A stretch of 64,000 bases of DNA from a bacterium (GCA_028823995.1 JAPPFD010000007.1:9594-73593), one strand, 5' to 3'; shown: positions 28,196 through 63,948, counted from the stretch's first letter. Numbers and translations are program-made. Notes: generated by a model from the sequence alone, not told the origin.

Positions 28196-29401
28196 TCATG
28201 TCCCCTTGTAGTTGATCCTGGCCACCAACCGGTGCTCGGCGGTCACCAGGTCAGACTGGTCCTCCATCACCTGGTCGATCGGCTTGTATGACCACGGGGA
28301 CTCGTCGACCAACTTCCGCGCCCGGTGGGCCTCCCAGGCCTTTCCCGCCATCGCCTCGGTCAACTGCTCGGCTGTGAAGAGCTTCCTGGCGCGGTTCCGG
28401 GAGTGCACGCGTCCCGCGCCGTGGGCGGCGGAGAGGTAGGAGAGCGGGTTGCCCAGCCCCCGCACGATGTAGGAGTCGGTCCCCATCGAACCGGGTATCA
28501 CGCCGCGGTCATCCGATCCCGCCCTGATGGCGCCCTTCCTGGTCACCCACACCCTGCGGCCGCCATGTCTCTCCAGAGCGGCGTAGTTGTGATGGCAGTT
28601 AATCATCTCCAGCAACTCCACGGTCCCCAGGTGTTTCCTGAGCGCTCCCCAGACCACGTCCAGTATCAGTTCCCGGTTTCTCCACGCGTAGGACTGGGCC
28701 CACAGCATCTGCCGGATGTACACGTCGAACAGGTCGTCGTCGGCCAGGTAGTAGGCCAGATCCCGGGTGGCTCTCCTTCCCCCGGCGGCGCACACCCGGG
28801 CGGAGGCGGCGATGTGGTGGGTGGCTATCCGGTTGCCGATGCCCCGGCTCCCGGTGTGCAGCACTATCCAGAGCCGCCCGAGTTCATCCGACGACACCTC
28901 CACGAAGTGGTTTCCACCACCCAGGGTGCCCAGTTGCTTTCCCACCCTCCCAGCGGTGCCTTTGGCTTTCGGCACCATCTCCGGGTGGGGGATCGGGTTC
29001 TCCCCCAGCCACCTTCGAGCCTCCGGTGAGGCAGCCTGGTGCCAGTCGAAGCCGGCCGGCACCCCCCGGCGGATCTCCCGGAGAACTTCCTGCGGGGAAT
29101 CGAGGTCCTCCAGGCGCCGGTTGGTGAGAGCGGCGATCATGCCGCACCCTATGTCCACCCCCACCGCGGCCGGGATTATGGCGTCTTCGGTGACTATCAC
29201 CGACCCCACCGTGGCGCCCTTCCCCAGGTGGGCATCCGGCATCAGGGCCACCGGGCCCGCCAGCACCGGACTCCGCGAGGTCTCCAACGCCTGCTTCCTG
29301 GTCTGGGGGTCCAGGATCGACGCCCAGTTGCGGACCCCCGCACCGCCCCCGCGGCCAGAATCCAAGAGCCGTCCCCGGGGACTCCCGCTGGTTGCCACCA
29401 T
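28196..29401 (-). CDS. rtcB: RNA 2',3'-cyclic phosphate--5'-OH ligase RtcB
   Basis: MPDAH, GVDIGCGM, GGGNHF, HTGSRG, HHNY, RKGA, PGSMG, HGAGR. Confidence 0.93.
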   Translation of the reverse strand: MVATSGSPRGRLLDSGRGGGAGVRNWASILDPQTRKQALETSRSPVLAGPVALMPDAHLGKGATVGSVIVTEDAIIPAAVGVDIGCGMIAALTNRRLEDLDSPQEVLREIRRGVPAGFDWHQAASPEARRWLGENPIPHPEMVPKAKGTAGRVGKQLGTLGGGNHFVEVSSDELGRLWIVLHTGSRGIGNRIATHHIAASARVCAAGGRRATRDLAYYLADDDLFDVYIRQMLWAQSYAWRNRELILDVVWGALRKHLGTVELLEMINCHHNYAALERHGGRRVWVTRKGAIRAGSDDRGVIPGSMGTDSYIVRGLGNPLSYLSAAHGAGRVHSRNRARKLFTAEQLTEAMAGKAWEAHRARKLVDESPWSYKPIDQVMEDQSDLVTAEHRLVARINYKGT

Positions 29402-29476
29402 GGCCCTTGACCCTACCGACCGAACCGGAGGCCGCTGACCCAATTTGCCCCCTTGACAGAAGTCACGCGGGGAGCG

Positions 29477-29494
29477 GCAACTATAGTTGGCGAC
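29477..29494 (+). repeat. 18-bp direct repeat copy 1 (palindromic core)
   Basis: GCAACTATAGTTGGCGAC. Confidence 0.6.
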
Positions 29495-29514
29495 CGATAA
29501 CGGCTGTGAAAAGT

Positions 29515-30978
29515 ATGTACAAGAGAGTTGAGGGTAGAGCGCGCGCCAGCCGAGGGCATCCCGCTCCGGTCCCACCCGGAGAGGCATGGGTCCAGCGGGA
29601 TCCCCCGTGCCCCAGGGATGGGCCCAATGCGGCGGACAGCCGGAAGGGTCTTGAAAGGAAAGCGGCTGCGCTCGCAGCATTGATGTTGCTGGGCGCGGGC
29701 TGTGCCGGCGGGGAGGATGTCGAGAACCCTGGGTCTGCATCCTCTGAAGGGCCCGTGCAGGAGGTAGTGGGCCCGGCCGGGCTTGAGCGATGCGAGGACG
29801 TGGCCGCGGTGACACCCAGTCTTGAAGGGAACCTCGGCGCCCGGCAGAACCCCGACCCAGCGGTGATGGATTTGATCGGCGCCTATCGGGACGAGCATGC
29901 CGGCACCTTCGGGGGGACGTGGATCGACCGGGCATACCGTGTTGTGGTGGTGGCCTTCACCGACGACCCGGAAGCGCATCGGGAGGCGATCCTGACCTAT
30001 CCCCCTCCCGGTGGCGATTCCGAAGCCGATCTGAGGCCGCTTGGTGAGCAGAGCGAGGTGACCATCGATGTTGTCCAGGTCCGGTACAGCAAGGCCGAAC
30101 TGGAGGGTATGCATCAGCAGATCATGGGCGCCGTGTCGGGTCGGGACTTCGCTGACTCGCTGATGACATTGGTCCTGATCACCAAGAACCGTCTAAACCT
30201 CAGCTTGTTCAATCCGCCCGAGGGAACTCTCGATGAACTTGTGGAGCTGGTGCCTGATGTGGGTGCAGTCTGTATTTCGGTTTCCTACCTCCCAGAACAA
30301 CCAACGGGGCCACTTGAGCTGATTCCCGACCTCGATGTGGAGGATCCGCTGGTCATCTGCCACGGTATCCCGCCAGTGCCCTACTCGCGGCTGGTCGACC
30401 CGCCTCCGATCGACCAGGTCGACCACCCGGCCGTGGAAGCCCTGCGTGCCGAACTCGAGGCTCCGGGCGCTGAGCCGATGCCGACGGGCCGCTGGGTGGT
30501 GATCAGCATCGGCGACGATCTCGCCACCTTCGCCGCCCTGTCCCCGGACTCCTTCGGCCATGCGGAATTCCGACGCCACGGGGACAGGTGGCGATTAGGG
30601 GGAGTAGGAATCGGTCCCTCCTGCGAACCCACCGTGGCGCTTCCCGATGGGCTCAACCGGCTCAACCGAGTCGCTATCAGTCTCGACCCCGGCTCGCCGC
30701 CCGATCCCGACAGCAGAACCATCCATGTGCTGGCTACTGAGCAGGCATGCGCAAGCGGGCGAGAGATGGGAGACGATCTCCAAGGTCCCCAAGTGGTTGA
30801 AACCGACTCCGCAGTACTGATCGCCTTCGTGGCCATCCCGCTCGCCGAGCGTTTGGTCAACTGCCAGGGAAACCCGTCCACCCCGGTGACCATCGAACTG
30901 AGCCGACCGCTCGGAGACCGCACGATATACGACGGACTCTACGTTCCCCCCAAACCGCTGGAACCCGAAAGCGAGTAA
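29515..30978 (+). CDS. Lipoprotein of unknown function
   Basis: Lipobox-like LLGAGC; C-terminal E.ACASG...CQGNP....I.L..PLGDR.IYDG; start uncertain. Confidence 0.75.
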
Positions 30979-32196: not shown

Positions 32197-32438
32197 AAAC
32201 TCATCTCCCGATGACGAAGCCAAGGGAATTCGGGGTCCATGACGTTTATCCCCCCTCCCGCTTCTAACCGCTGATCTCCCCGGGGACACTCGACAAGCCA
32301 ATCCCCGGCCCCGGGTCTTAGCAGTCACCGAGCAGGAATACTTCCGGTGTGGTGGACCGGTGGTTGTTCAGACGTTCTCCATGGTTCCCACCGCTCCCTT
32401 CGCCCGACGGCGCCCGCACGGGACAACTAAGTCCGCCT

Positions 32439-32470
32439 GACATATTTGAGCAACATTTCGTTGCCACAGT
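32439..32470 (+). promoter_or_regulatory. Conserved upstream motif, copy 1
   Basis: GACATATTTGAGCAACATTTCGTTGCCACAGT aligns without gaps to 57301-57332. Confidence 0.55.
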
Positions 32471-32511
32471 GAATGGCATCACACAGACCTTCAAGCGAAA
32501 GGAGTGAACCG

Positions 32512-33963
32512 ATGAAGTTAAAGAAGTTTCTGACCAAGACCTCCGTGATTGGGGTGGCGATAGGCGCCATGCTCAGCATGGGGGTGCTGGTCGCCTGCGG
32601 GGACGACACAGAGTCCCGGGGCGGCCAGGAGACCGGCGGCGCCGAAGGCTCTGGCGAGCACGGCGCCGCCGGGGAGGCCGGCGGCGAAGGCGGCGGCGGA
32701 AGCGAAGAGGCCAGCGGAACCATGTTGGCCCCCGACGAGACCTTCGACACGGTCCGGGCAGGCGCCCGGCTGATGATGCGCTACGACGCACCGAGCAACT
32801 CCTTCACGGGCACCGTTGAGAACACCACCAACAACGTCCTCACCCGAGTGAGGATCGAGGTGCATCTCTCCAACGGCGTGGAACTCGGTCCGACAACTCC
32901 CGTGGACCTGGCCCCGGGCGAGGTGATTGCGGTCGCCCTGCCCGCCACGCCGGAACCGTTCACCGGATGGACTCCCCACGCCGAGGTCGGCAGCGGCGAA
33001 GGCGGCGGAGGCGAGGGCAGCGAGTCCGGCGGCGAAGGCGGCGCCGAAGGTCCCGAGGGCAGTCCCGAGGGCAGCGGCGCCGAACTCAACGAGGCGGCCA
33101 TGTCGAGCCCTATCGTTCCCCTCTCACAGACGTGGGAAGGAAACCTCGGGGGACTGGCCATCTCTGCCCGATACGACGCCGCAACCCAGACGGTCTACTC
33201 GACGGTGGAAAACACCACCTCCCAGGTCCTCTGCTACGTGCAGGCCGAACCTCACCTGAAGTCGGGGACGACGACGGTCGGGGAACTCGGCCCGGACGTA
33301 CTGGGGCATCTCAGCCCCGGACAGGTGGCCACGACAGCGGTGGCGGTTTCCAGTGAACCGTCCCTGGCGGGGGTCTCCTTCGACGGGTACGTCGTCCACA
33401 TGGAGATCTTCGACTGCGCCGGCTCCGGCCCCGTGCCTCACACAGGAGGCGAGGGCGGTGAAGGCGGCGGTGGCGAAGGCGCTGGGGGCGAAGGGCACGG
33501 TCCCGGTGGCGAAGGCGGCAGCGAAGGCGGCGGCGAAGGCTCGGAGACCGGATCCTCCGGTGGTGAAGAGGGCAGCGGAAACATGCTGGCCTTGAACGAG
33601 ACCTTCGACACCGTCCGTGCCGGCGCCCGGTTGATCCTGAACTACGACGCCCAGAGCAACTCGTTCAAGGGCACCGTGGAGAACACGACCAACAACACCC
33701 TGACCCGGGTCAGGATCGAGGTCCATCTCTCGAACGGGACGGAACTCGGTCCGACCACCCCGGTGGACATGGCCCCCGGCCAGGTGCTGGCGGTCAACCT
33801 TCCCGCCACGGCTGAACCCTTCACCGGCTGGGTACCCCATGCCGAGGTCGGCAGCGGCGAAGGCGGCGGGGAGCACGGCAGCGAATCCGGCGGTGGTGAA
33901 GGCAGCGGCGAACACGGCTCCGGCGGAGAGCACGGCGGCAGCGGCGAAGGCGGCGGCGGCTGA
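32512..33963 (+). CDS. Three-domain (A-B-A) lipoprotein with Gly/Glu/His-rich linkers, FxLYD-like beta domains
   Basis: AAGGAG RBS; lipobox LVAC; repeated GTVENTT..L.RVRIE.HLSNG.ELGPTTP...PHAEVG domain. Confidence 0.85.
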   Translation: MKLKKFLTKTSVIGVAIGAMLSMGVLVACGDDTESRGGQETGGAEGSGEHGAAGEAGGEGGGGSEEASGTMLAPDETFDTVRAGARLMMRYDAPSNSFTGTVENTTNNVLTRVRIEVHLSNGVELGPTTPVDLAPGEVIAVALPATPEPFTGWTPHAEVGSGEGGGGEGSESGGEGGAEGPEGSPEGSGAELNEAAMSSPIVPLSQTWEGNLGGLAISARYDAATQTVYSTVENTTSQVLCYVQAEPHLKSGTTTVGELGPDVLGHLSPGQVATTAVAVSSEPSLAGVSFDGYVVHMEIFDCAGSGPVPHTGGEGGEGGGGEGAGGEGHGPGGEGGSEGGGEGSETGSSGGEEGSGNMLALNETFDTVRAGARLILNYDAQSNSFKGTVENTTNNTLTRVRIEVHLSNGTELGPTTPVDMAPGQVLAVNLPATAEPFTGWVPHAEVGSGEGGGEHGSESGGGEGSGEHGSGGEHGGSGEGGGG

Positions 33964-33986
33964 CGACTCCTACGGACACCGACAAC

Positions 33987-34023
33987 GGAGGCTCCGGTTC
34001 CGACATTCGGAACCGGAGCCTTC
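33987..34023 (+). terminator. Long hairpin after lipoprotein copy 1
   Basis: GGAGGCTCCGGTTCCGA-CAT-TCGGAACCGGAGCCTTC. Confidence 0.7.
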
Positions 34024-34196
34024 ACGCGGAGGATCAGAGATGACGTCATCGAAGACCGGTGACAGGAGCGAAGGAGTGATCCGGAAGAAATGTCAAGACC
34101 CGAACAGCGATATTCTGAAAACGGACACACCCGGTGGCCAGGTGGGAGCTCTCGTAAGGGATCTCCCTCCGGAGTGGCTCCCTGTTAGGACTGCTG

Positions 34197-34874
34197 ATGA
34201 ACGACATAGTGCTGATTGTCGAAGACAACAAGAGGATCGCCAACTGGGTGAAGGTGTACTTCGAGCGGGCCGGGTTCACCGCCGAGGTCGCCCATGACGG
34301 TCGATCCGGCCTGTCCATGGCCCGCCGCCTGCTTCCGGACCTGGTGATCCTCGACCTCAACCTTCCCCGCCTCGATGGCGTGGAGGTGTGCCGGATCCTG
34401 CGTGGCGAGTCGGACGTGCCGATCATCATGCTGACCGCCAGGGAGACCCCCGCCGAACGCATCATCGGGCTGGACAGCGGCGCCGACGACTACATCATCA
34501 AACCCTTCGACCCCGACGAGGTGGTGGCGCGGGCCAACGCGGTCCTCCGGCGCGTCAGGGACAGAGTCCAGCAGGTCCTGACCCGGGGAGCCATCACCCT
34601 GAACGAGACCACCCGGAGCGTAACGGTCGACGCCGAACCCGTGCCGGTGACTCAGGCGCAACTCGCCCTGCTGTCGACCTTCATGCGCCATCCCAACCAG
34701 GTACTCACCCGCTACCAGTTGATATACCTCACCTTCGGCTACGACTTCGAGGGGTACGAACGGGCTATCGACAGCCAGGTGGCCCGCCTGCGGAAGAAGA
34801 TCGACCGGGGCGGCCACCAGCCCATCCGGACCGTGTACGGCGCCGGCTACAAGTTCGTGACGGAGGACCGCTGA
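34197..34874 (+). CDS. OmpR-family response regulator
   Basis: VED, LDLNLP, IIMLTA, GADDYIIKPF, RTVYGAGY. Confidence 0.95.
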   Translation: MNDIVLIVEDNKRIANWVKVYFERAGFTAEVAHDGRSGLSMARRLLPDLVILDLNLPRLDGVEVCRILRGESDVPIIMLTARETPAERIIGLDSGADDYIIKPFDPDEVVARANAVLRRVRDRVQQVLTRGAITLNETTRSVTVDAEPVPVTQAQLALLSTFMRHPNQVLTRYQLIYLTFGYDFEGYERAIDSQVARLRKKIDRGGHQPIRTVYGAGYKFVTEDR

Positions 34875-36319
34875 TGTCGCTCCGCTGGCGGATCATGGGT
34901 GCCATCGTCCTGGTCATCGTCCTCACCATCCTGATCGGAGTCGGCATCGGCTACTACACCACCCAGGCCCGCCTGGACGTGTTCGTGGACCGGATAGGCG
35001 AGGAAGAGGCTAACCGGCTGGCCCGGAATCTGAGCCGGGAATACACAGACGCCGGTGGTTGGCAGACGGTGGACGGGCCGCTCACCGAAGCCGGGTACAT
35101 CTCCGGCGGACCCACGGTGAGAGAGGGACCCGAGACAGGTGAGCATGGGTCCTCCGAGTCGTTCCACCATAACCCGGTGCGAGTGGTGATCGTGGGCGCC
35201 GACGGCCGGGTGGTGGTGGACAACCTGTCCGAACTCTCGCCGGGAACCATGGCGCCGGAGTTGGACGGACGCAGCGTGACCCTCTTCGACTTGACTGCCA
35301 ATCAACCGGTGGGCCGCCTCTACCTGGACGTGAACCAGGAGTTCCTCTCGACCGAGTCCCACGGGTTCCTCAGCACGATCTTGACCGTGAGCCTGATCGG
35401 CGGTCTGCTGACCGCAGGCGCCGGCATTCTGCTGGCCGCCTGGATGTCCAAGCGGATCACCGCGCCGGTGACAGCCTTGACGGAGGCAACCCAGGCGATC
35501 GCCCAGGGTGACACGACCCGCCTCCCCGTCACCTCATCGGACGAACTGGGGCGGATGAGCGCCGCCTTCAACCAGATGACCACCGCCCTGGAAACCCAGC
35601 GCAACCTCCGCAGGCGGCTCATCAACGACGTCTCGCATGAACTGAACACCCCGCTGAGCGTCATCCAACTGGAAGCGAAGGGACTCCGCGACGGGCTCCA
35701 GACGCCCGAGGACGCCTCGGAACACATCATCGGAGAGGTGGACCGCCTGCGCGGCCTGGTAACCGACCTGAACTGGCTTGCGGAGACCGACCACGGCGAG
35801 TTGAGGCTCACATTCCAACCGGGTTCGATCTGCGAACTGCTCACCACGGAGGTGGAGCGCTGGCAGCCACAGGCCCGGGCTCGACAGATCGAGTTGTCGC
35901 TCCGGGCATCCGGTGACCTCCCGGACATGGACCTCGACCGGGTGCGCATCAGCCAGGCACTGGGAAACCTGGTGAGCAACGCCATCGGGAGCACCGATCC
36001 CGGTGGAAGCATCGGTATCTCGGCGGACTTGGAAGACGACGACTGGTTGGCCATCTCGGTAACCGATGACGGGATCGGGGTCGACCCCGCAGACCTTCCC
36101 AACCTGTTCGACCGCTTCTACCGCACCGACCAGTCCCGCAGTCGGGAAGCGGGCGGGACCGGCCTGGGACTGGCCATCACCCGGACCATCGTTGAGGCAC
36201 ACGGGGGCACGGTTTGGTTGGAAAGCGCCGGACCCGGACAGGGCGCCACGGTGAGTATCCGCCTTCCCCTCCCTTCCGCCCAGGGCAGCATTGCGTCGCC
36301 GCCCCCGGACCCGAGTTGA
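34874..36319 (+). CDS. HAMP sensor histidine kinase (BaeS-like)
   Basis: Two TMs, HAMP, SHELNTPL, NLVSNA, DDGIG, GTGLGL; TGATG overlap. Confidence 0.93.
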   Translation: MSLRWRIMGAIVLVIVLTILIGVGIGYYTTQARLDVFVDRIGEEEANRLARNLSREYTDAGGWQTVDGPLTEAGYISGGPTVREGPETGEHGSSESFHHNPVRVVIVGADGRVVVDNLSELSPGTMAPELDGRSVTLFDLTANQPVGRLYLDVNQEFLSTESHGFLSTILTVSLIGGLLTAGAGILLAAWMSKRITAPVTALTEATQAIAQGDTTRLPVTSSDELGRMSAAFNQMTTALETQRNLRRRLINDVSHELNTPLSVIQLEAKGLRDGLQTPEDASEHIIGEVDRLRGLVTDLNWLAETDHGELRLTFQPGSICELLTTEVERWQPQARARQIELSLRASGDLPDMDLDRVRISQALGNLVSNAIGSTDPGGSIGISADLEDDDWLAISVTDDGIGVDPADLPNLFDRFYRTDQSRSREAGGTGLGLAITRTIVEAHGGTVWLESAGPGQGATVSIRLPLPSAQGSIASPPPDPS

Positions 36320-57300: not shown

Positions 57301-57332
57301 GACATATTTCGGCAACATTCGGTCGTCATAGT
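57301..57332 (+). promoter_or_regulatory. Conserved upstream motif, copy 2
   Basis: GACATATTTCGGCAACATTCGGTCGTCATAGT. Confidence 0.55.
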
Positions 57333-57369: not shown

Positions 57370-58854
57370 ATGAAGCGTTTGAGGTTTTTGACCAGGAACC
57401 GCCTGATCGGGGCGGTTCTTGGTACGGTGCTCACAGCAGGCGTGCTGGTCGGTTGTGGCGCCGGTAACGAGGGCTCCGAAGGCCCGGAGTCCGGAGTTGA
57501 GGGCACCACGGAACAAAGCGGCGAAGGCGGCGGCGAGCACGGCGCCGGCGGCGAAGGAACCGGCGGCGAGAGCGGCGGCGAAGGCGGATCGGGCGGCGAA
57601 GAGGCCAGCGGCAACATGTTGACGCTGAACCAGACCTTCGACCAGACCCGGGCCGGCGCCCGGCTGGTCATCGGCTACGACGCCTCCACCAACTCGTTCG
57701 TGGGGACCGTGGAGAACACCACCAACAACACTCTCACCCGGGTGAGGATCGAGGCTCACCTCTCCAACGGAGTCGAACTCGGTCCGACCACCCCGGTGGA
57801 CTTGGCGCCCGGTGAGATCCTGGCGGTCGACCTTCCGGCCACGGCCCAGCCGTTCACCGGATGGACCCCCCACGCCGAGGTCGGCGGAGGCGAAGGAACC
57901 GGCGGCGAGTCCGGTGTTGAAGGACCCGAAGGCAGCGGCACCGAGGGCGGTAACGAAACCGGTGTTGAAGGACCCGAAGGCAGCGGTGTCGAACTGAACG
58001 AGGCGGCCATGTCGAGCCCGGTGGTTCCTCTCGACCAGACGTGGAACGGCAACCTCGGCGGATTGGCTGTTTCTGCCTGGTACGACGCGGCCACCCAGAC
58101 TGTCCACAGCACCGTGCAGAACACCACCTCGCAGGCGCTCTGCTACGTGCAGGCCGAACCCCACCTGAAGTCGGGAACGCAGACGGTAGGAGAACTCGGT
58201 CCCGACGTGCTCGGACACCTGAGCCCCGGACAAACCGCCACCTCCAGCGTGGCGCTCTCCACCGAACCCGCACTTGCGGGGGTCTCCTTCGACGGATACG
58301 TCATCCACATGGAGATCTTCGACTGCGCAGGCTCCGGTCCGGTGCCCCACACCGGAGGAGAAGGCGGCGGAGGCGAAGGCGCCGGCGGTGAAGGCCACGG
58401 ACCCGGCGGCGAAGGCGGAAGCGAGAGCGGAAGCGAAGGCGGATCCGGTGGCGAAGAAGGTAGCGGCAACATGTTGACGTTGGACCAGACCTTCGACCAA
58501 ACCCGGGCCGGCGCCCGGCTGATCCTCGGCTACGACGCCTCCACCAACTCGTTCAAGGGCACGGTGGAGAACACCACCAACAACACCCTCACCCGGGTCA
58601 GGATCGAGGTTCACCTCTCCAACGGAGTCGAACTCGGTCCGACCACCCCCGTGGACATGGCCCCCGGCCAGATCCTGGCGGTTGACCTACCGGCCACAGC
58701 CCAGTCGTTCACCGGATGGACGCCACATGCCGAGGTCGGCAGCGGCGAAGGCGGTGGCGGCGGGGAAGGCAGCGAAGGCGGCGGTCGTGAAGGCGGCAAC
58801 GAACACGGCTCCGGCGGAGAACACGGCAGCGGCGGCGAAGGAGACAGCGGCTAA
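57370..58854 (+). CDS. Paralog of the three-domain Gly/Glu/His-linker lipoprotein
   Basis: AAGGAG RBS; lipobox LVGC; same A-B-A domains as 32512-33963. Confidence 0.85.
   Translation: MKRLRFLTRNRLIGAVLGTVLTAGVLVGCGAGNEGSEGPESGVEGTTEQSGEGGGEHGAGGEGTGGESGGEGGSGGEEASGNMLTLNQTFDQTRAGARLVIGYDASTNSFVGTVENTTNNTLTRVRIEAHLSNGVELGPTTPVDLAPGEILAVDLPATAQPFTGWTPHAEVGGGEGTGGESGVEGPEGSGTEGGNETGVEGPEGSGVELNEAAMSSPVVPLDQTWNGNLGGLAVSAWYDAATQTVHSTVQNTTSQALCYVQAEPHLKSGTQTVGELGPDVLGHLSPGQTATSSVALSTEPALAGVSFDGYVIHMEIFDCAGSGPVPHTGGEGGGGEGAGGEGHGPGGEGGSESGSEGGSGGEEGSGNMLTLDQTFDQTRAGARLILGYDASTNSFKGTVENTTNNTLTRVRIEVHLSNGVELGPTTPVDMAPGQILAVDLPATAQSFTGWTPHAEVGSGEGGGGGEGSEGGGREGGNEHGSGGEHGSGGEGDSG
57911..57986 (+). repeat. 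Intragenic tandem duplication in linker
   Basis: CCGGTGTTGAAGGACCCGAAGGCAGCGG at 57911 and 57959 (48-nt period). Confidence 0.8.
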
Positions 58855-61091: not shown

Positions 61092-61889
61092 TCAACTCCG
61101 GTCGGGGCCGATCGGCAGGCAGACCATCCGACCGGATTCGGGGTTGGTGAAGATCTTCGCCGACACTCCGAAAACCGTCCGCATCAGTTCGACGGTGAGC
61201 ACTGCCGAGGGCGCACCGTCCGCCACGATCCGGCCGCTGTCCACCACGACGACACGGTCCGCATAGTTGGCGGCATGCAAGAGGTCGTGGAGCACCAGGA
61301 CGACCGTCATGTCGCCGCTCGCGCATAGGGACGCCACGAGGTCCAGGACCTCGAACTGGTGCCGGACATCGAGAAAGGTGGTCGGCTCGTCGAGGAGTAG
61401 GGTGTTGGCGCCTTGAGCAAGCGCCAGCGCGATCCAGGCGCGCTGGCGTTCTCCCCCGGAGAGTTCGTCCAGGGGGCGTTCCGCGAAACCGCTCAAACCC
61501 GTGAGCGTGAGCGCGGACTCCACGGCGAGTTTGCCTTCGGCGCCGTGTCGCCCGAACAGCCCGGTATGGGGAAAGCGGCCCAACTCGACGAGTTCGCGGA
61601 CCGTCAGTCCCGGTGGGCTGGATGGAGACTGGGGAAGGACGGATACCAGGCGGGCGATGTCGCGAGATCCAAAGTTCCGTATGTCCCGCCCATCGAGGAA
61701 CACGACGCCGCTCCGGGCCGCAAGCAAGCGGGACATCGCCCGTATGACCGTGGATTTCCCCGACCCGTTCGGCCCGACGATGGCGGTGATCGTGCCCTGC
61801 TCCAACCTCAGGTCGAGGCCTTCGAGCACCATCCGCCGCCCATAGCCGGCGCTGACCTGTTCCAGCCTGATCGGTTCGACGTCGTTCAT
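61092..61889 (-). CDS. Iron-siderophore/cobalamin ABC ATP-binding protein
   Basis: GPNGSGKST, LSGGERQRAWIA, LDEPTT.LD, VLHD. Confidence 0.93.
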   Translation of the reverse strand: MNDVEPIRLEQVSAGYGRRMVLEGLDLRLEQGTITAIVGPNGSGKSTVIRAMSRLLAARSGVVFLDGRDIRNFGSRDIARLVSVLPQSPSSPPGLTVRELVELGRFPHTGLFGRHGAEGKLAVESALTLTGLSGFAERPLDELSGGERQRAWIALALAQGANTLLLDEPTTFLDVRHQFEVLDLVASLCASGDMTVVLVLHDLLHAANYADRVVVVDSGRIVADGAPSAVLTVELMRTVFGVSAKIFTNPESGRMVCLPIGPDRS

Positions 61890-62911
61890 CTGGTGCTCCG
61901 CCGAATCAGAAAGATGAGCAGTGGCGCCCCGAGGATGGCCATCACGGCCCCGACGGGAAGGCCCACACGGTACGCCGAGGAGGGGATCGGCGGCTTGATG
62001 GAGAACGATTGGGCGACGAGGTCGGCCGCCAGCAGCAGCAGGCAGCCGATCATGGCGGCCAGGGGAAGGACACGGCGGGCGTCAGCACCGGCGACCGCTC
62101 GCGCCGCGTTCGGGGCCATCAGGCCGACGAATGGTATGGCGCCCGAGACAGTCACAGCCCCGGCAGCCAGGACCCCGGCCAGCCCGAACAGCGCCACCCG
62201 AGCAGGCTGCAAGGGGAGGCCGAGAGCGCGGCCGGACTCGTCGTCGATCTGGAGGACGTTGGCGGCCCGGGCAGCCAGCAATCCGGCGGGGATGGCGACG
62301 GCAGCCCACGGTAGCGCCAGCCAGACGTCATCCCAGACGCGGCCATGCAGCGACCCGATGAGCCAGGAGAGGATGTTGCCCAGGGCGTAATTGGAGCGCA
62401 GCATGACAATCGCAGTCAGCGATCCAAGGATGGCGTTGACGATTACCGCGGTGAGGATCAGTCGCAAGGGATCGATGCCTCCGCGCTTCGAACTCACCAA
62501 GAGCACCAGTATCCCCCCGGCCAGGGCGCCCACGAGCACCACGAACGGGAGCAGGCGGCCGGGTTGAGGCAGTCCCCACACGCCTCCCAGGAAGAGGACC
62601 GCGGCGAGAATGCCTCCCGTGGAGACGCCGGTGAGACCGGGCTCGGCGAGGCGATTGCGCATGACGACCTGCAGCAACGCCCCCGAGAGGCCCAGCATGC
62701 AACCCACCAGGAGCCCGAGGATCGCGCGAGGCATCCGCAGGTCCCAGACGATTGTCCGGTCCGTGGGGTCCGCGAGTCCATCCACCAGGGCCCCGATGAC
62801 ACGATCCGGTGGGATCCAGACGGTGCCCAGTCCGAGGTGGAGGATGAAGAGGACGACAGCCGCCATGCCTGCCACCACCACGAGGGCCACAAACGAACGC
62901 GCCGATGTCAC
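61886..62911 (-). CDS. FecCD-family ABC permease
   Basis: LRMPR, LQVVMRN.LAEP, FVGLMAP, LPVG. Confidence 0.9.
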   Translation of the reverse strand: MTSARSFVALVVVAGMAAVVLFILHLGLGTVWIPPDRVIGALVDGLADPTDRTIVWDLRMPRAILGLLVGCMLGLSGALLQVVMRNRLAEPGLTGVSTGGILAAVLFLGGVWGLPQPGRLLPFVVLVGALAGGILVLLVSSKRGGIDPLRLILTAVIVNAILGSLTAIVMLRSNYALGNILSWLIGSLHGRVWDDVWLALPWAAVAIPAGLLAARAANVLQIDDESGRALGLPLQPARVALFGLAGVLAAGAVTVSGAIPFVGLMAPNAARAVAGADARRVLPLAAMIGCLLLLAADLVAQSFSIKPPIPSSAYRVGLPVGAVMAILGAPLLIFLIRRSTR

Positions 62912-63948
62912 GAGCGGTTCAGTCCCAGATTCTTGCGGCGGAGAAGCACGAGGATCATCGGGGCGGCCAGGAGGGTCGTGCACAGCCCCACGGGAATCTC
63001 GCCCGGATAGATGACGACCTTGGCAAGTACGTCGGACGCCAGCAACAGGAGGGCTCCGATCACTGTGGCCACCGGAAAGAGGAGCCTCGCATCCGGCCGG
63101 ATGACTATCAGCCGAGCGATGTGCGGCGTCAGGAGCCCGACCCAGGCGATGGGCCCGGCGACCGCCACGATGCTCCCGACGAGCAGCGCGGCCAGCGCGA
63201 CGAAGACGCCGCGCATGCGCCTTGCCGGCATCCCCAGCGACGAGGTGACATCCTCGTCCAACTGGAGCACGTTGGCGCCTCGAGCGAGGATGAAAGCTGC
63301 GGGAACCCCCACCAGCACCCACGGCCACACCAGCTGGACATGGTCCCATGTCCTACCCGAGAGGTTGCCGACCGTGAAGAGGAAGAAGATCCGCACCGCA
63401 CCGGACGAGGCGGCGAGGCCGATCACGGCCAGGATGATCCCATTGAGGAGCGCCGCAACCGCCACGCCGGTCAGCGCCGCCTCCACGGGTGTACGCGCCC
63501 CCCGCGACGCCACCAGGACGATCAGGCCCCCGCCCAGCCCCCCGGCAAGAGCCACGACGGGGTGAAGGGCGAACAGGACGGGTGCGTTCAGCAGCAGGAT
63601 GATTGCCATCGCCAGGGATGCTCCGGCGGAGACGCCGAGCAGCCCCGGCGAGGCCAGCGGGTTCCTGAGAACGACCTGAAGGATGGCCCCCGACAGCCCC
63701 AGCGCCGCGCCGGAGAGAAGCGCCAGGATCAGCCGCGGCAACCCCAGCTCCCGGACCACGAGCCGTTCGATCCGGTCGCCGGATTCGCCCAACAGGATGC
63801 CGGGCAGTTGCCCGGGCGCCACCCTCGGCTCAACCGTGCTCAGGTGGATTATGGCGAGGGCGGCGAGCGCCACCAGTATCGCTCCGGCGACTATCACCAG
63901 GAACCAGGTCCGGCCCGGTGTCGCCGCCTCGCCGGGGTGTGTGCTCAA
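62908..63948 (-). CDS. FecCD-family ABC permease
   Basis: LPR, LRNPLASP, WVGLLTPH, EIPVG. Confidence 0.9.
   Translation of the reverse strand: MSTHPGEAATPGRTWFLVIVAGAILVALAALAIIHLSTVEPRVAPGQLPGILLGESGDRIERLVVRELGLPRLILALLSGAALGLSGAILQVVLRNPLASPGLLGVSAGASLAMAIILLLNAPVLFALHPVVALAGGLGGGLIVLVASRGARTPVEAALTGVAVAALLNGIILAVIGLAASSGAVRIFFLFTVGNLSGRTWDHVQLVWPWVLVGVPAAFILARGANVLQLDEDVTSSLGMPARRMRGVFVALAALLVGSIVAVAGPIAWVGLLTPHIARLIVIRPDARLLFPVATVIGALLLLASDVLAKVVIYPGEIPVGLCTTLLAAPMILVLLRRKNLGLNRS

Follow-up and report, generated by a model that had tools for sequence, protein, structure and literature searches.

The 64,000-nucleotide stretch of bacterial DNA analysed here (GCA_028823995.1, JAPPFD010000007.1:9594-73593; the window, with all positions counted from its first letter) carries, between 32439 and 36319, a gene for a three-domain surface lipoprotein followed by the genes of a two-component system, a segment that an earlier note, made from the DNA letters alone, had singled out as a candidate undescribed metal-responsive surface system. 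Comparison with related loci best supports, as far as sequences can tell, a closed cassette made up of a sensor kinase, its regulator, a private promoter and a surface lipoprotein. We propose that this cassette is self-contained and horizontally mobile, that its kinase senses a cation and that its regulator induces a metal-binding lipoprotein, a reading that we consider about evenly balanced between right and wrong. If true, it would be a compact three-gene module with a defined operator, a sensor and a single output.

Conservation of the Gene Order

A genome scan with one genome per species yielded 414 loci with relatives of the lipoprotein, and the locus counts given here cover the best 80 of these, with open reading frames (ORFs) called by a simple longest-ORF script. 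As the earlier note had read, an OmpR-family regulator and a kinase follow the lipoprotein gene downstream in the window, and this co-occurrence holds across genomes: at 68 of the 80 loci (68 of the 76 with room for them) orthologues of both come immediately after it, encoded on the same strand. These 68 comprise 59 clean calls, eight with an over-extended regulator ORF and one with a split kinase. Four further loci end less than 600 bp after the lipoprotein gene, two of them showing the start of a regulator, and the last eight have downstream room and no regulator/kinase pair, two of these being second copies whose first copy is paired. Clustering of the neighbouring ORFs revealed no other conserved neighbour, the next most frequent family being found at 10 of the 80 loci.

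By their record titles, the 80 loci belong to metagenome-assembled genomes (MAGs) of Acidimicrobiia, among them "Candidatus Spongiisociaceae", or of Chloroflexota (Dehalococcoidia, SAR202 and Caldilineaceae), or are labelled just "bacterium". Outside the Acidimicrobiia, the loci have median identities to the window proteins of 76% (regulator, n = 65), 70% (kinase, n = 64) and 66% (lipoprotein, n = 76), and the closest OmpR-type paralogue of the regulator in its own genome is 39% identical. Presence is patchy, with 7 of 16 genomes in the same genus, 0 of 8 in other genera of the family and 1 of 16 in other families of the order. From the 66–76% cross-phylum identity, the 39% of the own-genome paralogue and the patchy presence we infer that the three genes spread horizontally as a unit between Acidimicrobiia and Chloroflexota.

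Twenty public sequencing runs hold part of window positions 32300–34300; four of them hold at least half of the sampled words, and these four, from two studies, are all labelled sponge metagenome, the best holder possibly being the source sample. Together with the MAG record titles, these runs tie the three-gene form to Acidimicrobiia and Chloroflexota associated with sponges; the form with a single domain, described below, is far more widespread. Identity of 66–76% across phyla, in MAGs of sponge-typical groups, makes the three genes a candidate niche-adaptation set in sponge symbiosis, for which few such modules have a defined mechanism.

Promoter, Hairpins and Paralogue

Position 32439, at which the earlier note began its annotation, is the first base of a promoter repeat and not a gene start. 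With the start codons of 75 lipoprotein genes as anchor, an alignment of the 300 bases before each gene shows a conserved block at −72 to −50, which reads GACATATTTCT GCGACATTTCA and consists of two 11-bp units with G..A.ATTTC in common; CTATCGTGAG and, after it, TTCACGAAAGGAG come next. Repeat 8-mers occur in 43–45 of the 75 regions at −72 to −50 from the ATG, the repeat is discernible in nearly all 75 and across both phyla, and CTATCGTG is present in 28 of the 75 at about −45. Lipoprotein copies that have no adjacent two-component system retain the block as well. In the genome of the window (2.94 Mb) a search allowing up to two mismatches returned two sites, both before lipoprotein genes, and none with the reversed control; in five Chloroflexota genomes (2.7–3.9 Mb) the consensus, at up to three mismatches, returned one site each and none with the controls, each site falling within the coordinates of that genome's lipoprotein locus (arithmetic worked through for one of the five).

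PhoB-type regulators activate promoters through direct repeats of 11-bp spacing across the −35 region. Because the repeat found here is PhoB-like, lies over the −35 region and is found in the six genomes at lipoprotein genes only, we infer that it is bound by the adjacent regulator, which would have no direct targets other than the lipoprotein genes. The earlier note's claim of a two-component system that goes with the lipoprotein and acts as its control is thus well supported by linkage and by a unique, conserved promoter repeat, with activation as the presumed direction of control.

A second lipoprotein gene of the same A-B-A architecture (57370–58854, Table 1) is flanked in the window by a gene for a molybdopterin-dehydrogenase FAD subunit and a short-chain dehydrogenase gene. 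The hairpin that follows it is near-identical to that after the first copy (−42.9 kcal/mol for the stretch folded), and since promoter repeat and terminator hairpin are the same for both genes, this paralogue is likely a second target of the same regulator. The hairpin behind the first copy is probably a terminator or attenuator that separates expression of the lipoprotein from that of the two-component system. The 32 intergenic regions examined have a strong hairpin between the lipoprotein gene and the regulator gene; together with the hairpins behind both paralogues of the window, this suggests that transcription of the lipoprotein gene mostly stops short of the two-component-system genes. 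A search of Rfam over 32200–34300 gave no match at E ≤ 1.

Two observations concern the intergenic region in other genomes. In Chloroflexota loci such as L042, L049 and L080, the conserved GC-rich hairpin before the regulator gene has a GAGATAAT / TATAAT-like box upstream of it, which may mark an internal promoter with a stem-loop at the 5' end or else belong to the 3' end of the lipoprotein. In L066 a run of N followed by poly-G breaks the hairpin region, which is probably an assembly or scaffolding artefact.

Domain Architecture and Conserved Residues

The lipoprotein runs from a signal peptide with lipobox (Cys29) through a Gly/Glu/His linker to domain A1 (about residues 69–160), a linker, domain B (about 194–312, with Cys241 and Cys302), a further linker, domain A2 (about 356–447) and a GEHG tail. 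A longer ORF starting at 32473 was rejected as over-extension, the true start being the ATG at 32512. The N-terminus, MKLKKFLTK...GVLVAC with basic n-region, hydrophobic core and the lipobox L-V-A-C, is that of a bacterial lipoprotein (an Lgt/Lsp substrate), and a broadened pattern, [LVIMAFT][LVIAGSTM][GAS]C, finds a lipobox in 74 of the 80 orthologues; the six without a match include NGC-type boxes and truncated ORFs. The three related domains in A-B-A order recognised in the earlier note are borne out, each with TVENTT (starting at residues 101, 231 and 388), ExHL (116, 246 and 403), ELGP (124, 258 and 411) and HxE (156, 296 and 443), as are the Cys pair of domain B and the Gly/Glu-rich linkers, in which GEHG occurs four times and GHG once. 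The protein contains 22% Gly, 11% Glu and 13 His residues, and its mature form is strongly acidic, with 53 Glu and 13 Asp versus 11 Arg and 6 Lys. Since A1 as query recovers from the same ORF both A2 (E 7e-48, 83% identity) and B (E 1e-9, 40% identity), the three domains are, judged by these matches, true homologues whose likeness is not by chance.

A1 (window 32716–32991) and A2 (33577–33852) show a median identity of 87.6% within one protein (25 proteins), compared with 76.4% between A1 and the A1 or A2 of other proteins, and no position separates A1 from A2. This higher identity within than between proteins suggests that the A domains evolve in concert, either by gene conversion within the gene or by repeated re-duplication.

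Among 25 full-length homologues, E116, H118, H156 and E158 of A1 are invariant, as are E403, H405, H443 and E445 of A2, and C241, E246, H248, H296, E298 and C302 of B together with H310. The A domains of these homologues have no conserved Met or Cys, and the linker stretch GEGAGGEGHGPGGEG and the C-terminal GEHG are mostly kept. Across the family, 410 of 599 domain instances have E/H/H/E at the tetrad positions; 145 more are B domains that align over their first half only, their C-terminal part missing from the alignment, and the other 44 (28 patterns) have gaps or substitutions at one or more tetrad positions. Divergent members alter several tetrad residues jointly, for example to K/R/R/E in both domains of the relative P0206.

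A word-indexed protein search with residues 69–305 (threshold E ≤ 0.001) returned 1646 proteins, many 66–89% identical and nearly all unnamed, and an exhaustive search with A1 only returned 814 clusters (50% identity) at that threshold and 594 at E ≤ 1e-10, of which the best 150 of the 814 were examined. Relatives of A1 include many single-domain proteins of 120–250 residues besides two- and three-domain forms. Longer relatives (P0004–P0008, 733–779 residues) have five domains in the order A-B-A-B-A, with domain positions from hmmsearch for P0008 and P0004. The single-domain relatives retain the lipoprotein signal, the Gly/Glu/His linker and the same E/H residues, and those of the same genus carry three or four tandem SGEHGGGSE-like repeats. 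In metagenomes, 291 single-domain relatives were found, with a median GC content of 47% (best 80 of 291); a metagenome scan with P0144 matched patterns and found no relative, and upstream of the single-domain genes of four same-genus genomes no regulator box was obvious by eye. At least one EH[GSAND] motif is present in the lipoproteins of all 80 loci (median three). Because His/Glu-rich linkers persist in low-GC, Lys-rich relatives, and the conserved residues of the domain persist in relatives from lower-GC DNA, the composition of the linkers is, on this comparison, not merely a by-product of GC-rich DNA.

The single-domain homologues of three same-genus genomes (L099, L101 and L102, in G004, G011 and G002) lie directly after an ORF of 629 residues that resembles an ABC ATP-binding domain in its C-terminal part (label read from the DNA and unverified), and also adjoin an ORF of about 440 residues that starts with a GTP-binding (P-loop) motif, likewise an unverified label; no two-component system is nearby.

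The AF2 model of A1 (91 sequences, pLDDT 98) is a seven-strand β-sandwich in which E116 and H118 lie on the strand of model residues 42–51, ELGP in the next loop, and H156 and E158 on the last strand (85–90). By its i,i+2 spacing on a β-strand, each E/H pair is predicted to face one side of its strand. In domain B, Cys241 and Cys302 may lie on the same two strands and would roughly fit an antiparallel pairing with H248 opposite H296, from the exact register of which the Cys pair is one residue out. Mean-field direct-coupling analysis of 435 unique domain instances (effective number 177; pairs at least five residues apart) ranked the pair 56–90 (E124–E158) second, 48–88 (E116–H156) fifth and 50–88 (H118–H156) 29th, with 57–85, 59–88 and 58–88 also within the top 30. 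This analysis shows ExH, ELGP and HxE behaving as one unit in terms of co-loss, as distinct from distance or contact.

A Foldseek search of the A1 model against the PDB gave no match at E ≤ 0.001. The nearest entries in the ESM Atlas are unnamed hypothetical clusters at 0.90, and the nearest named one, DUF1425 at 0.83, is a lead only. The NCBIfam model NF038353 (FxLYD_dom) is matched above its cut-off, by two stretches at 41.3 bits compared with a cut-off of 23 (E 1.1e-10), the best stretch being residues 96–146 at profile positions 4–57 of 71, with 58–71 unmatched. The string F-x-L-Y-D is absent from the 483-residue lipoprotein when its sequence is read through. The word "undescribed" in the earlier note thus no longer applies to the domain, for which a model exists, but stands for its function, since the model carries none.

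Regulator and Kinase

The regulator matches PF00072 (Response_reg, 96.4 bits) and PF00486 (Trans_reg_C, 68.9 bits), both above cut-off, which places it in the OmpR/PhoB family, and the start codon of the kinase overlaps its stop codon (ATGA). The kinase consists of a first transmembrane segment (TM1), a PDC-like extracytoplasmic domain (residues 30–165), a second transmembrane segment (TM2) and HAMP, HisKA and HATPase_c domains. Its sensor domain (136 residues) gave no Pfam match and no PDB sequence match at E ≤ 10. The AF2 model of this domain (pLDDT 71) has a long N-terminal helix at 2–31 and strands at 73–79, 83–87, 104–110 and 115–124, and the loop of residues 49–70 is predicted to be disordered (pLDDT below 50). 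The best VIA match of the model is the extracellular domain of WalK (Z 11.0, rmsd 2.8, 111 residues aligned), followed by CitA (Z 9.5), CusS (Z 8.6) and PhoQ (Z 5.4), and the sensor is accordingly modelled as a PDC or extracytoplasmic PAS-like fold, an assignment of the fold that says nothing on the ligand.

The earlier note had further pointed to a GEHG motif in the extracytoplasmic loop of the kinase. In the window this loop does read GEHGSSESFHHNP, but the literal string is not conserved among 34 orthologues and is, on this alignment, specific to this lineage. What is conserved is an acidic loop, present in 34/34 orthologues, with (in sensor-domain numbering) E55 in 32 of the 34 (94%), E58 in 26 (76%), E61 in 29, E/D66 in all 34, H69 in 32 and D71 in 33; an ExxE motif is found in 33 of the 34 and RExxE in 17. 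Next to TM2, E132 is kept in all 34 and H134 in 32. A complex prediction of lipoprotein residues 190–448 with the kinase sensor (residues 30–165) gave ipSAE values of 0.00 and 0.03, which is not evidence either way.

Table 1. Positions of the cassette, its control elements and the paralogous gene in the window.
Feature	Position	Strand	Remarks
Direct repeat, 11-bp period	32439..32460	+	GACATATTTGA and GCAACATTTCG; putative regulator site, overlaps lipoprotein −35 region
−10-like box	32465..32474	+	CACAGTGAAT; putative promoter element, same position as Chloroflexota CTATCGTGAG
Ribosome-binding site	32498..32504	+	AAAGGAG; precedes lipoprotein ATG
Lipoprotein gene	32512..33963	+	483 residues; ATG start, stop codon ends at 33963
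GC-rich hairpin	33987..34023	+	after lipoprotein stop; −36.9 kcal/mol for 60-nt stretch folded
Response regulator, OmpR/PhoB family	34197..34874	+	225 residues; Response_reg, Trans_reg_C
Sensor histidine kinase	34874..36319	+	481 residues; HAMP, HisKA, HATPase_c (Pfam)
Direct repeat of paralogue	57301..57322	+	GACATATTTCG and GCAACATTCGG; same repeat as 32439..32460
Paralogous A-B-A lipoprotein	57370..58854	+	78% identical; no adjacent two-component system

Two further regions of the window were noted in passing. On the plus strand, 29392–30978 is an ORF of 528 residues with a lipoprotein-like stretch and no Pfam match at E ≤ 0.001, which may be another surface lipoprotein. On the minus strand, 61092–63948, 2.2 kb from the paralogue, holds an ABC ATPase-like ORF (61092–61889) with two long hydrophobic ORFs upstream that, judged from the translations only, resemble permeases of an iron-siderophore/cobalamin-type importer; an ATPase family related to the 61092–61889 ORF is the most frequent non-cassette neighbour (10 of the 80 loci).

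Proposed Mechanism and Alternatives

In the mechanism that we propose, the kinase would sense an extracytoplasmic cation through its PDC-like domain, by way of the acidic ExxE/His loop and the membrane-proximal E-S-H, and would phosphorylate the OmpR/PhoB-type regulator, which in turn would bind the 11-bp-period direct repeat that replaces a −35 element and switch on the lipoprotein gene and, in this genome, the unlinked paralogue as well. These bacteria have a single membrane, to the outer face of which the lipoprotein would be anchored, holding its three β-sandwich domains on long acidic Gly/Glu/His linkers. In each domain, E-x-H (strand 4), the Glu of ELGP (next loop) and H-x-E (last strand) would form a site of two His and two to three carboxylates for a hard or borderline cation (Zn, Fe, Mn, Ni or Co), with the GEH-bearing linkers as low-affinity capture arms. 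The protein would then buffer or sequester the cation at the surface; it would be the output of the system and might feed back on the kinase as well.

A His/Glu metal site in each domain, as the earlier note supposed, is plausible from the conserved residues. The cluster of two His and two to three Glu, the co-variation of the tetrad with ELGP, the His-bearing acidic linkers, the very acidic protein and the ExxE/His loop of the sensor together suggest a metal cation as both signal and ligand. Absence of conserved Met or Cys from the A domains would, on grounds of chemistry, favour Zn, Fe, Mn, Ni or Co over Cu(I) or Ag(I).

Several results weigh against this proposal. No metal-binding family was matched by the lipoprotein in the Pfam and PDB searches: a Pfam scan gave nothing above cut-off (sub-threshold GEVED, GD_N, DUF7507, T2SSI and Big_1), and a PDB sequence search with A1 gave 0 matches at E ≤ 10. 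A wide VIA search with the A1 model retrieved generic Ig-like sandwiches only, the best being a GH2 domain at Z 8.0, within the stated background level of VIA, at which unlisted families stay possible, followed by RbmA (7.7), SadB (7.6), YjhA (6.8), DUF1425 (6.5), a FixG-related domain (6.2) and YcdA (6.1), and no known metal-binding fold stood out among the listed matches. The coupling signal at the near-invariant columns stems from a few divergent sequences with joint losses. The GEHG of the kinase loop, tried as a conserved link to the lipoprotein linkers, was rejected on its lack of conservation. The analogy to CusRS and CzcRS drawn in the earlier note fails as a statement of membership: the models of the heavy-metal subfamily score below cut-off for the kinase (cztS_silS_copS, 154.1 bits vs 292.55) and the regulator (cztR_silR_copR, 162.8 vs 279.2; TIGR01386, TIGR01387), as does the CusS-type PRK09835 for the kinase (108.1 vs 423), and we rejected assignment to the CusRS/CzcRS/SilRS/CopRS subfamily on these scores. 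In the neighbourhoods examined, no conserved metal transporter or metalloregulator was seen beside any form of the lipoprotein. Single-domain relatives have an OmpR-type pair nearby in 0 of 4 same-genus loci and in 2 of the best 80 of 291 metagenome loci, both weak matches of 100–133 bits; because these relatives stand alone, the function of the domain, judged by gene context, does not require this two-component system. Finally, no RNA run is among the public runs that hold part of 32300–34300.

The most serious alternative, in our judgement unlikely yet the main rival, gives the lipoprotein chiefly the part of accessory co-sensor in a three-component system: it would bind the signal or sense the state of the envelope and modulate the kinase by contact with its PDC-like domain. 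Precedents, in which lipoproteins or secreted proteins serve some actinobacterial kinases, are LpqB with MtrAB, CseA with CseBC and HbpS with SenSR. HbpS is also named in PMC4074579. Both partners here are extracytoplasmic and their genes adjacent in 68 of the 80 loci; domain B is part of all forms found linked to a two-component system (A-B-A, or in L103 B-A), relatives with a single A domain being unlinked; and the intergenic hairpin, together with the separate promoter, fits a protein made in excess of the kinase. What speaks for the lipoprotein as at least an output is the promoter evidence: within the six genomes the conserved repeat is confined to the promoter of the lipoprotein itself, as would be expected of an output and not merely an input, unlinked paralogues retain it, and three-domain copies without a nearby two-component system exist (8 of the 76 loci with room; L106). 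Output and co-sensor roles may coexist, as described for ZraP.

We think it improbable that no metal is involved and that the lipoprotein is an Ig-like adhesin or sponge host-interaction factor, or a shield against pH or cation stress, with a two-component system that senses a host or envelope cue and His/Glu residues conserved for structure or pH sensing. The resemblance of the fold to Ig-like adhesin and biofilm-matrix modules (RbmA and SadB, as above) would agree with this, but the structural scores are at background level. The restriction of the three-gene form, among the best 80 of 414 loci, to Acidimicrobiia and Chloroflexota MAGs, the sponge-metagenome label of the runs and a cross-phylum spread that suggests niche selection also fit this reading, as does the very acidic mature protein; yet single-domain relatives bearing these E/H residues are also common in other metagenomes, of lower GC content, so that the site is not specific to sponges. 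Moreover, all 80 orthologues retain His within linkers of otherwise low complexity, as do relatives of different composition, and the kinase loop bears ExxE-type motifs known from metal sensors.

A cassette for metal acquisition under scarcity, in which the kinase reports a low cation level and the lipoprotein captures metal for an importer encoded elsewhere, would draw on the same linkage and promoter evidence as the mechanism proposed above, and His/Glu sites with His-bearing flexible arms may resemble the capture proteins of uptake systems. We consider it very improbable, as no conserved importer is near the cassette, the promoter repeat stands at no transporter gene in the six genomes and known extracytoplasmic ExxE sensors respond to excess, according to PMC4074579.

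We return to the proposed metal-binding cassette for what it would mean. A broader proposal, which we advance tentatively and with more doubt than conviction, is that the 814 clusters form a widespread, previously unrecognised family of metal-binding β-sandwiches, of which the three-domain version of sponge symbionts is a transferable sense-and-sequester cassette. If true, the site would be one of two His and two to three Glu fed by His/Glu capture arms and coupled to an ExxE-type sensor and a private operator, a large and currently unannotated family of small lipoproteins would obtain its first function, and unrelated symbionts would have a means to cope with the metal load of sponge tissue. 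A closed unit of sensor, operator and output could also be reused as a biosensor part once its signal is known.

Comparison with Known Systems

No publication on the cassette was found in the literature, as judged by titles and the starts of abstracts, supplements aside, and a full-text search for the FxLYD domain returned no relevant paper. Among named models, those of BaeSR, MtrAB and PhoBR score best and have the same domain order, all scores being far below the cut-offs: BaeS_SmeS gives 235.8 vs 500 (residues 12–465), PRK10549 198.3 vs 603, BaeR 164.2 vs 380, PhoB 195.2 vs 296.2 and MtrA 190.6 vs 300. Unlike in these systems, the sensor domain here has no Pfam or PDB sequence match. With the FxLYD and Ig-like lipoproteins (YjhA, 3cfu; YcdA, 4r4g; DUF1425, 3o0l) our protein shares small seven-strand β-sandwich domains that are secreted or lipid-anchored, differing from the FxLYD family in that it covers profile positions 4–57 of 71 only and is without the FxLYD string. 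To our knowledge, the FxLYD, YjhA, YcdA and DUF1425 families have no assigned function and no described E/H tetrad.

On the side of the sensor, ExxE motifs in the periplasmic domains of ColS (Fe3+, Zn2+), PmrB and BqsS are described as metal-sensing in PMC4074579. The kinase of the cassette likewise combines an extracytoplasmic acidic ExxE with a HAMP domain and an OmpR-family partner; unlike in ColS, where the motif lies beside TM2, its ExxE is in a disordered loop in mid-domain, no relationship at the level of sequence families being shown, and unlike those of ColS, PmrB and BqsS its regulon seems confined to lipoprotein genes.

On the side of the output, two systems come closest. ZraR is a sigma-54 activator and ZraP a helical CpxP/Spy-like protein, not a lipoprotein with β-sandwich domains. 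ZraSR is described to induce the zinc-trapping ZraP (PMC4074579), and ZraP to be both output and part of ZraPSR, with a possible feedback on the sensor (PMC12314577, PMC4074579). As in ZraPSR, an envelope protein encoded beside a two-component system would be the main output here, with metal binding and induction as the proposed parts of the likeness. The ZraS model scores 116.9 bits vs a cut-off of 479, and in distinction to enterobacterial ZraPSR the regulator is of OmpR/PhoB type, the hosts are Acidimicrobiia and Chloroflexota and the protein is a lipoprotein with β-sandwich domains. SilE and PcoE are regulated by SilRS and PcoRS, and SilE uses His and Met for Ag(I) and Cu(I). Both are portrayed in PMC5008109 as His-rich, disordered envelope proteins that soak up metal as a "molecular sponge", SilE being wholly disordered. 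The lipoprotein resembles them as a His-bearing, partly disordered envelope protein encoded with a two-component system, and differs from SilE in that its disordered Gly/Glu/His linkers join three folded domains with His/Glu clusters. Since the heavy-metal, BaeS and ZraS models score well below their cut-offs, the cassette is a member of none of these systems, and by analogy would work like ZraPSR or like SilE/PcoE with their two-component systems.

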